DNA of 23,250 bases from a virus (lineage: Duplodnaviria; Heunggongvirae; Uroviricota; Caudoviricetes): IMG/VR virus record IMGVR_UViG_2778261136_000011. One strand, written 5' to 3'. Made by a program: the position numbers. Positions 21,001 through 23,250 of this stretch are shown here, in pieces. The stretch's first letter is position 1; every line of letters starts with the position of its first letter.

Positions 21001-23250
21001 TCCCCGCTAATACGGATTTGTCAAATCTGGTCTTAAAACTCGAATTGTCTTGCCCGCAGGCTTTTCAGCATTGGTCTGGCCCGCTGGACAACGAAACTTG
21101 ACTGGTCAAGCTGTGCCGCCTCCCGCAGTAGTGCTTCCTTGTTCTTCGTCACCATGTAGATGGTCTCAAACGCAATGTCATACAGCTTGTTCGTGTATGA
21201 GGAGTTCAGCTCTTTCATGATCGGATACAGGTGTTTGCTGAGGTCCTGGGCTTTTTCCATCCAGAGTTGCATGTAGCAGAGGAGGATGATTTCCTCGGCT
21301 GTGAATTGCTGCTCAGTTTGTACTGGCTGAATGTTGCGAAGTTTCTTTTCGCACTCGATGAAGTAGCGGCGTATCTGGCGACCTTTTTCGTTACGTTCAA
21401 CCATCGCAAGCTCTTTGGCTGTGTCGAGGGTGAGGTGGTAATCCTTGCGGCGGCGGCCTGGAGTTTTCGCCAAATTTGGCGAAAATAGAATGTAGTCTAA
21501 ATTTTCTACGAATCCATACTCGTTTAGCCTGGCCCGTATCCAGTTAGAAAAATCTTTACCTACCTCTAAAAATCCATGCAAATCACGCGCGTTCACCAGA
21601 AGCGTAGGTTCATTTGAGATTGTACCTTCAAACACAGGGATGAGTTGAGTGGTCATGATGACCTCCTTTGGCTTTTTTCGAGAAATGCCACCACAAGATG
21701 TGGTGCCGGGAGGCTCGAAACGGCCCAAAAGATACCGCGGACTTATTCCCCTTGCGGGTGTTGTATTCGTCGCCCTCCCGACATTGATCGGGGATGTGAC
21801 CGCACACTGTGCTATCACTGAATAACAGGCATAAAAAATCCAACACTGACGGGGTTGGTTTAATCCGCTTTTGGGAGGTTTTCGAGGCCTCGGCGCGGAG
21901 TATAGTCAGTATTGGACGCAGTCGTCAACCATCGCAAGCTCTTTGGCTGTGTCGAGGGTGAGGTGGTAATCCTTGCGGCGGCGGCCTGGAGTTTTCGCCA
22001 AATTTGGCGAAAATAGAATGTAGTCTAAATTTTCTACGAATCCATACTCGTTTAGCCTGGCCCGTATCCAGTTAGAAAAATCTTTACCTACCTCTAAAAA
22101 TCCATGCAAATCACGCGCGTTCACCAGAAGCGTAGGTTCATTTGAGATTGTACCTTCAAACACAGGGATGAGTTGAGTGGTCATGATGACCTCCTTTGGC
22201 TTTTTTCGAGAAATGCCACCACAAGATGTGGTGCCGGGAGGCTCGAAACGGCCCAAAAGATACCGCGGACTTATTCCCCTTGCGGGTGTTGTATTCGTCG
22301 CCCTCCCGACATTGATCGGGGATGTGACCGCACACTGTGCTATCACTGAATAACAGGCATAAAAAATCCAACACTGACGGGGTTGGTTTAATCCGCTTTT
22401 GGGAGGTTTTCGAGGCCTCGGCGCGGAGTATAGTCAGTATTGGACGCAGTCGTCAACCATCGCAAGCTCTTTGGCTGTGTCGAGAGTTAGGTGGTAGTCC
22501 TTGCGGTTGTGACCGCCTCTACCAGATGTTTGCTTTCCCAAATTGGAAAGCAAAATATAGTCTTGATTTTCAATGAATTCGTATTCTGAAATGCGATTTG
22601 TAATCCATGCCGCAAACACCTTTTTCACGCCTAAAAAAGCATGCAGATCGCGGGCATTGCAGAGTAGGGCTATTTCGTTGTCGATAGTGCCGTTGAATAC
22701 GGGGATGAGTTGACTGGTCATGATGACCTCCTTATTTGTTTAGTTTATAACCGCCAGTTAGTAGCTGGCGGTCGGGTGTCAACTGAGCCAAATAAGAAGC
22801 TCTGGGCATATTCCCCTTGCGGGTGTTGTATTACGCCTCTCCACCCGACCTTTGTACGGATGTAACTATGCCAAATTGCAGGCATAAAAAAGCCGCAAAG
22901 CTATCGGGTGCGGAGACCGCTTATTTGTTCAGTGCGATCAGTATGCGATAGCTTTGGCGGATTTGTCAAATCGTGCAGTAACATCCTTTTCTTCCTTGCC
23001 ATTTCTCAATGATGACAAAGGGTGGATTCGGATTGGTATTGGGACAAAAGTGAGACACACAAAGCTTTGCATCGGCTTACAAAGCTTTGCATGTTTTTCA
23101 ATGTTGGGACGTGTGAGCGCAGAAATGACGGGCTATCTAATTGATTTTAAACGATACGTAACCAACTTTAAAATCTTTGCACGCCAGTTCGCAGGTTTTA
23201 CAGCCAGTACAGCGGCTGGAATCGATAAAAAATCCATATTGTGTGGTCAT

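Follow-up and report, generated by a model that had tools for sequence, protein, structure and literature searches.

Several Stx phages are known to integrate in ynfG. Gray et al. (2014) described the Stx1a phage phiPOC-J13 in S1742 of Shigella flexneri and in the homologue ynfG in laboratory-made MG1655 lysogens, with integration in 2457T as well, and they termed the integration site-specific (PMC4193171). The Shigella sonnei phage 75/02 Stx likewise integrates in ynfG (PMC5447701), Carter et al. (2023) gave the bounds of the RM10410 Stx1a prophage as ynfG-(1,803,652-1,866,151)-ynfG (PMC10562709), and ynfG is also the site of an stx1a prophage described in a 2024 preprint on Stx-prophage typing. 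The lambda Int/attP system resembles the locus described here in having the recombinase gene beside attP, arm repeats that flank a short core with a 7-bp overlap, and hybrid attL and attR sites; it differs in that its sequences are unrelated and in its accessory-factor sites (IHF, Xis), none of which were identified at the present site. The IntD/argU system of the cryptic prophage DLP12 keeps the same arm-type repeats and palindromes as the ynfG system and also has a 7-nt overlap between inverted half-sites. It targets a tRNA gene, however, whereas the ynfG system targets a protein-coding gene, and in the argU system the whole tRNA 3' half is identical between attP and attB, compared with 7 bp only in the ynfG system.

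Here we analyze a 23,250-nucleotide stretch of a Caudoviricetes virus record (IMGVR_UViG_2778261136_000011), referred to below as the window. Its last positions, 23137-23250, almost certainly mark the place where a Sepvirinae-like, short-tailed lambdoid prophage of the Stx type, ~62 kb long and integrated in E. coli ynfG, meets the host gene on its integrase-distal side (attR in the lambda system). A finding of this sort is already known: Stx phages are documented at this integration site, and the attR junction is an ordinary one. A literature search on ynfG, Stx and integrase found no description of the 7-bp core, the arm repeats, the argU/IntD similarity or the specificity of the integrase; the core, the arm repeats and the argU/IntD likeness are small additions to the known case.

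The window ends within ynfG

Translation of the minus strand from 23250 (ATG ACC ACA CAA ...) gives MTTQYGFFIDSSRCTGCKTCELACKDFK; VGYVSFKIN comes next, and the stop codon occupies 23137-23139. Over 23250..23166, this strand matches the 5' end of ynfG from E. coli K-12 at 85/85 nucleotides, and 23166 is the exact position at which the identity ceases. The 37-aa product matches 4Fe-4S Pfam models, with Fer4_2 scoring 29.5 bits against a cutoff of 24.5. An earlier note on this DNA had read the fragment as the N-terminus of an iron-sulfur subunit that loses similarity near 23166 and stops at 23137-23139, and each part of that reading is borne out, the stop being reached after nine phage-encoded codons. 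The product of ynfG is the four-cluster iron-sulfur subunit of YnfEFGH, a selenate-reductase-type enzyme of the DMSO-reductase family.

The fragment divides into host and phage parts. Host DNA upstream of the crossover core comprises the first 78 nt of ynfG (codons 1-26; 23173..23250, minus strand), which are 100% identical to K-12 ynfG and 82% identical to dmsB and include the group I cysteine motif C14-x2-C17-x2-C20-x3-C24. The first phage bases past the core (23137..23165, minus strand) are translated as the nine out-of-context codons VGYVSFKIN and a TAG stop; 75/02 Stx and POCJ13 have the same bases at their right ends, and PhiR5_2 has part of them (to 23149). The attR product retains 28 native YnfG residues, with only the first of the cysteine groups (C14, C17, C20, C24). 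A full-length 205-aa product with four cysteine groups is not encoded, as the frame stops at codon 38, and we found no intact ferredoxin-type gene continuing downstream.

The closest genome, that of E. coli O22:H8 strain 154 (NZ_CP067426.1), is 99.9% identical across the whole window and 100% identical over 22700-23250. With the start codon of ynfG the window comes to its end, so that ynfF, the integrase and attL can be seen only in this near-identical strain. There the fragment is a RefSeq pseudogene, a partial '4Fe-4S binding protein', and ynfE-ynfF lie directly upstream of it.

This gene order bears on the identity of the disrupted gene, which the earlier note had given as dmsB/ynfG-type. 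That the fragment might be the 5' end of dmsB, the gene for the DMSO reductase B subunit, is suggested by the first 26 amino acids, which are identical in DmsB and YnfG, and by two papers (one of them PMC10562709) that write 'ynfG (also known as dmsB)'. The nucleotide sequence nevertheless distinguishes the paralogues. Against 85/85 for ynfG, dmsB matches 23250..23166 at only 70/85 nt; residue 27 is F in the fragment and in YnfG, but Y in DmsB; and dmsB reads CTACAAAG where ynfG has TTTTAAAG, the TTTAAAG core being absent from dmsB. The neighbors in strain 154 are ynfF and ynfE, and the partial genome matches listed (see below) were all annotated ynfG. We consider a dmsB origin exceedingly improbable, and dmsB was ruled out as the target gene by the 70/85 identity together with the ynfE-ynfF synteny. 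Of the two names in the earlier note only ynfG stands: judged by nucleotide identity and gene order, the disrupted host gene is ynfG, not dmsB.

A reciprocal junction in strain 154

About 62 kb from the fragment, strain 154 carries an integrase gene followed by a 184-aa ynfG remainder, ynfH, dmsD and clcB, the last three being the normal K-12 operon continuation. The other half of the target is thus present at a reciprocal junction, and the short core TTTAAAG occurs at both junctions of this strain. These observations support the suggestion of the earlier note that the element ends inside the gene at a prophage-host junction; the direct repeat of the core that the note proposed to look for at the other prophage end is present in strain 154. 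The reciprocal junction (attL) is not present in the window, which holds the late and accessory part of the prophage only.

The integrase (8691-9854 of the extracted strain 154 locus) is a 387-aa protein that matches Pfam Phage_integrase (PF00589) at 1.5e-45, and 48 bp separate its stop codon from the core that follows, placing a tyrosine recombinase gene adjacent to attP. The ynfG remainder on the attL side (8099-8653 of the same extracted locus; WP_000254426.1) is annotated in strain 154 as 'DMSO/selenate reductase B subunit'. According to RefSeq, its ORF begins at a GTG in phage DNA (MVSNN) and continues as YnfG from F27, keeping cysteine groups II-IV; inspection by eye found no obvious Shine-Dalgarno sequence ahead of this GTG. 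All four group I cysteines (C14, C17, C20, C24) are missing from the hybrid, and on these grounds we rejected the idea that the phage rebuilds a functional gene at attL from this 184-aa ORF. The annotation of WP_000254426.1 as an intact 'DMSO/selenate family reductase complex B subunit' is probably mistaken, the ORF being a remnant of the gene.

Between the two junctions, the strain 154 prophage contains exo/bet/gam, a cI-like S24 peptidase, cII, Q, stxA1c/stxB1c and lysis modules, as well as terminase, portal, an N4-gp56-type capsid protein and tail fibres. The window corresponds to the last ~23 kb of the element, with tail-associated genes, hok/sok and ead/TraR/BRO/Ant accessory genes; the stxA1c and stxB1c genes are carried by the strain 154 prophage, while the window itself spans the tail/accessory end only.

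A 7-bp core between inverted half-sites

Comparison of attB (K-12), attR (window), attL (strain 154) and attP (the 75/02 Stx join) leaves TTTAAAG as the sole stretch common to all four. This 7-bp common core lies at 23166-23172 on the minus strand (ynfG nt 79-85, codons 27-29) and is the presumed overlap of the integrase, with the exact cleavage positions inside it predicted from the sequence. In attB, the core is centered in an imperfect palindrome, GCAAAGAT-TTTAAAG-ATCTTGGC, whose flanking positions are complementary at 7/8; a dyad score that high is reached at only 6 of the 5,977 positions of the K-12 ynfE-clcB (ynfEFGH) locus. Inverted half-sites around a 7-bp overlap are the standard core layout of tyrosine recombinases.

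The attP predicted from the two prophage ends reads ...GAGCAACAAC-TTTAAAG-TTGGTTACGTATCG..., the sequence expected around the core being ...GCAACAAC-TTTAAAG-TTGGTTAC... The prediction agrees exactly around the core with the end-to-start join of the circular 75/02 Stx record, with the qualification that the core is where the 75/02 Stx and POCJ13 records were linearised, and their attP join may partly reflect record construction. Past TTTAAAG, the join is without any ynfG sequence. The phage records themselves end at 23172 (75/02 Stx), 23165 (POCJ13) and 23149 (PhiR5_2) in window coordinates, and their opposite ends carry the same integrase, 99-99.6% identical.

These records also bear on whether the ynfG fragment could belong to the phage, as it does in phages that rebuild their target gene upon integration. 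Six records of the phage collection indeed match the 78-nt ynfG-only part, at 82-88%. Among the 50,697 phage records searched, however, nothing exceeds 88%; the identities of all six matches fit dmsB and not ynfG, and the record inspected proved to be host flank with a complete dmsABC operon, ycaC and ycaD. None of the related phage records extends past the core, and the attP join includes only TTTAAAG of ynfG. Moreover, the ynfG target is not rebuilt, because the attP-attB identity covers only 7 bp, and the attL hybrid is left without group I cysteines. The earlier note had considered that the fragment might prove phage-borne and conserved in free phage genomes; the free-phage records lack the 78 nt of ynfG that precede the core, and we regard a phage-borne fragment as having next to no likelihood. 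The ynfG piece in the window is far better read as host DNA at the prophage junction.

One record in the collection deserves separate mention. ON470599.1 (Escherichia phage vB_EcoM-569R5) contains the host genes ycaD, ycaC and dmsCBA at 6352-11428; derived from a prophage, this 'partial genome' record retains chromosomal flank and can mislead searches for phage-borne dmsB or ynfG.

Distribution of the junction

For the distribution, a 271-bp query spanning the arm, the core and the ynfG piece was compared by BLAST with 5,426 complete E. coli genomes. The full junction is present in 82 of them (1.5%) at 95% sequence identity or above. Approximately 5,200 genomes match query 187-271 only (E = 2e-35), which corresponds to window 23166-23250, and among the matches listed all of these partial matches lie under an annotated intact ynfG. 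The comparison with E. coli genomes that the earlier note had proposed thus separates the junction from the undisrupted gene at the same nucleotide at which the K-12 identity ends, and the right-hand boundary of the prophage can be fixed at window 23165/23166 and the disrupted gene named as ynfG.

Recurrence is also informative about a different origin for the junction, a break that is not site-specific (a deletion, an IS-mediated event or an assembly chimera) beside prophage DNA. A perfect 528-bp tandem duplication nearby, which reflects either rearrangement at this place or a difference in assembly from strain 154, would be in keeping with such an event, but the same junction recurs in 82 complete genomes, has a reciprocal partner with the 7-bp core and an adjoining integrase, and involves a gene that laboratory lysogens use too (PMC4193171). 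We therefore judge a chance break to be very unlikely and interpret the junction as a product of site-specific integration.

Within this group of prophages, the Stx1c prophage of strain 154 and the Stx1a prophage of O113:H4 RM10410 (NZ_CP042350.1) share the same ynfG junction. Our match in RM10410 starts at 1,803,567, and addition of the 85 nt of ynfG gives 1,803,652, the same boundary as that published (PMC10562709). Both prophages differ from the window in lacking its extra 528-bp unit within 21397-22484. The Shigella phages phiPOC-J13 (S. flexneri) and 75/02 Stx (S. sonnei; Diegovirus, Sepvirinae) share the S1742/ynfG target with the window element; their att-proximal ends are 94-96% identical to window 22700-23172 and their integrase ends 99.6% identical, and the attP join of 75/02 Stx is identical around the core. 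They differ in the mosaic make-up of the accessory and antirepressor regions and in ant copy number, and the closest relative of the window has stx1c rather than stx1a. The window element thereby joins the Stx phages known to integrate in ynfG, an assignment of use when the insertion sites of Stx prophages are typed in STEC and Shigella.

The attP arm and its flanking module

The integrase-distal attP arm (23040..23165, minus strand) contains two GTCCCA repeats and copies of a palindrome. The repeats lie at 23110-23105 and 23045-23040 (minus strand), and between them ATGCAAAGCTTTGT occurs twice (23092-23079 and 23072-23059, minus strand), each copy containing the palindrome CAAAGCTTTG. Counting both arms, there are four GTCCCA repeats, all in a single orientation, at -103, -92 (inside the int 3' end), +62 and +127 from the core; the consensus is YGTCCCA, with two repeats adjoining the int stop codon and two in the window. 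None of 20,000 shuffles of the 435-bp attP reached four GTCCCA. The repeats are probably the arm-type sites of the integrase, and the palindromes may constitute a site for an accessory protein. Together with the repeats, the inverted half-sites around the 7-bp overlap fall within the layout of a 6-8 bp overlap flanked by arm-type sites. A comparison of the junction with Rfam returned only a sub-threshold chance match, to mir-19 (26 bits; cutoff 50), on the arm palindromes.

The placement of the arm corrects one claim of the earlier note, which had put the junction within about 100 bp of an antirepressor promoter region. The ~125 bp adjoining the core are attP arm with repeats, and the nearest promoter-like site, at 22969-22940, is ~200 bp off. 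The interval between the two, 22970..23039 (minus strand; boundary approximate), forms the rest of an att-specific module that is common only to ynfG-integrating phages. In Stx phages that integrate elsewhere (VT2-Sakai and Stx1 phages), the match stops at query 270-271, equivalent to window 22969-22970; matches to 75/02 Stx, POCJ13 and PhiR5_2 continue past 22970 toward the core. Because the elsewhere-integrating Stx phages match only to ~22970, we assign the ~200 bp adjoining the core to an att-specific module.

Taken together, the features of the site suggest the following course of integration. The 387-aa tyrosine integrase would bind the YGTCCCA arm-type repeats and the core, and strand exchange would take place inside the 7-bp TTTAAAG, between the inverted half-sites GCAAAGAT and ATCTTGGC of attB. 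Integration divides ynfG at codons 27-29. The 5' piece, with the first CxxCxxCxxxC motif, runs into phage DNA and stops after 37 codons, and the 3' piece, with the other three cysteine groups, comes to lie behind the integrase gene with ynfH and dmsD. Since neither piece has all four cysteine groups, YnfG is presumably inactivated in lysogens, which would lose intact YnfG, the motif of cysteine group I being cut off from the remaining three. In this arrangement ynfH and dmsD end up downstream of int on the same strand.

Likeness to the IntD/argU system

The ynfG-type integrase shares 87% identity with IntD of DLP12, a cryptic prophage resident in argU (intD, 1316-2479 of the extracted DLP12 locus), and 77% with the integrase of BIS08P22, and the proteins are of equal length. 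Identity is highest over residues 1-60 (93%) and in the catalytic blocks, and lowest over residues 61-180 (82%), 266-300 (69%) and 361-387 (70%). Of the 24 residues that set the ynfG-type integrase apart from both argU-type integrases, 13 fall within 61-180, the stretch presumed to bind the core.

A homologous attP that is internal to its record occurs only in the Lederbergvirus Salmonella phage BIS08P22, where int and attP lie in one contiguous stretch with 73.7% identity to the ynfG system (attP, 1100-1800 of the extracted BIS08P22 locus). In its arms, 3/4 of the GTCCCA repeats are exact, the fourth is GTCTCA, and the palindromes are conserved, while ~100 bp around the core are replaced by the 3' half of tRNA-Arg(UCU), argU; ARAGORN detected no complete tRNA in this attP, as expected of a 3' half. 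We had evaluated BIS08P22 as an independent internal attP with the ynfG core and rejected it as such: its core is of the argU type, and the record supports the arm assignment only.

Written in the int orientation and centered on the 7-nt anticodon loop, the argU site is CCCACGAC-TTAGAAG-GTCGTTGC. It matches the ynfG site at 14/23 positions, including 5/7 in the overlap, and about 6 in 10,000 background 23-mers equal that. The sequence relationships suggest, short of proof, that an argU-type system recently gave rise to the ynfG specificity. A narrower proposal is that the ynfG site mimics the argU anticodon stem-loop, such that this 23-bp near-palindrome is targeted by an IntD-like integrase; we put it forward tentatively, as an idea that we doubt slightly more than we believe. 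If true, an integrase specific for a tRNA gene would recently and naturally have acquired a protein-coding target via few substitutions, and such retargeting could be used to map the determinants of integrase specificity.

Other features of the accessory end

The last phage gene before the junction encodes a 95-aa antA/AntB-type antirepressor fragment (22434..22721, minus strand) and is preceded by the sigma-70-like site at 22969-22940 and an Rfam sRNA-Xcc1-type element (22762-22850). The window contains four matches to this family (RF02221), all on the minus strand, at 20819-20909, 21697-21782, 22225-22310 and 22762-22850, with scores of 68.6-73.4 bits (gathering threshold 53). Every match immediately precedes a copy of an antirepressor/BRO gene, a placement that would suit a conserved structured leader.

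The perfect tandem duplication has a period of 528 bp (21397-21956 and 21925-22484) and yields an extra truncated antA/AntB antirepressor copy. The extra 528-bp unit is absent from strain 154 (99.9% identical, window) and from RM10410 (99.9%, 19000-23250), and the duplication may be either a real recent event or an assembly difference.

Farther from the junction, the sok antitoxin RNA has a full-length match (RF01794, 112.6 bits) at 17730-17904 on the minus strand, and a Hok/Gef family gene is annotated at the matching place in strain 154, and the accessory region thus includes a hok/sok module. The largest gene of the window is a 2807-aa ORF on the plus strand (8261-16684), which is annotated in strain 154 as an 'LPD38 domain-containing protein'.
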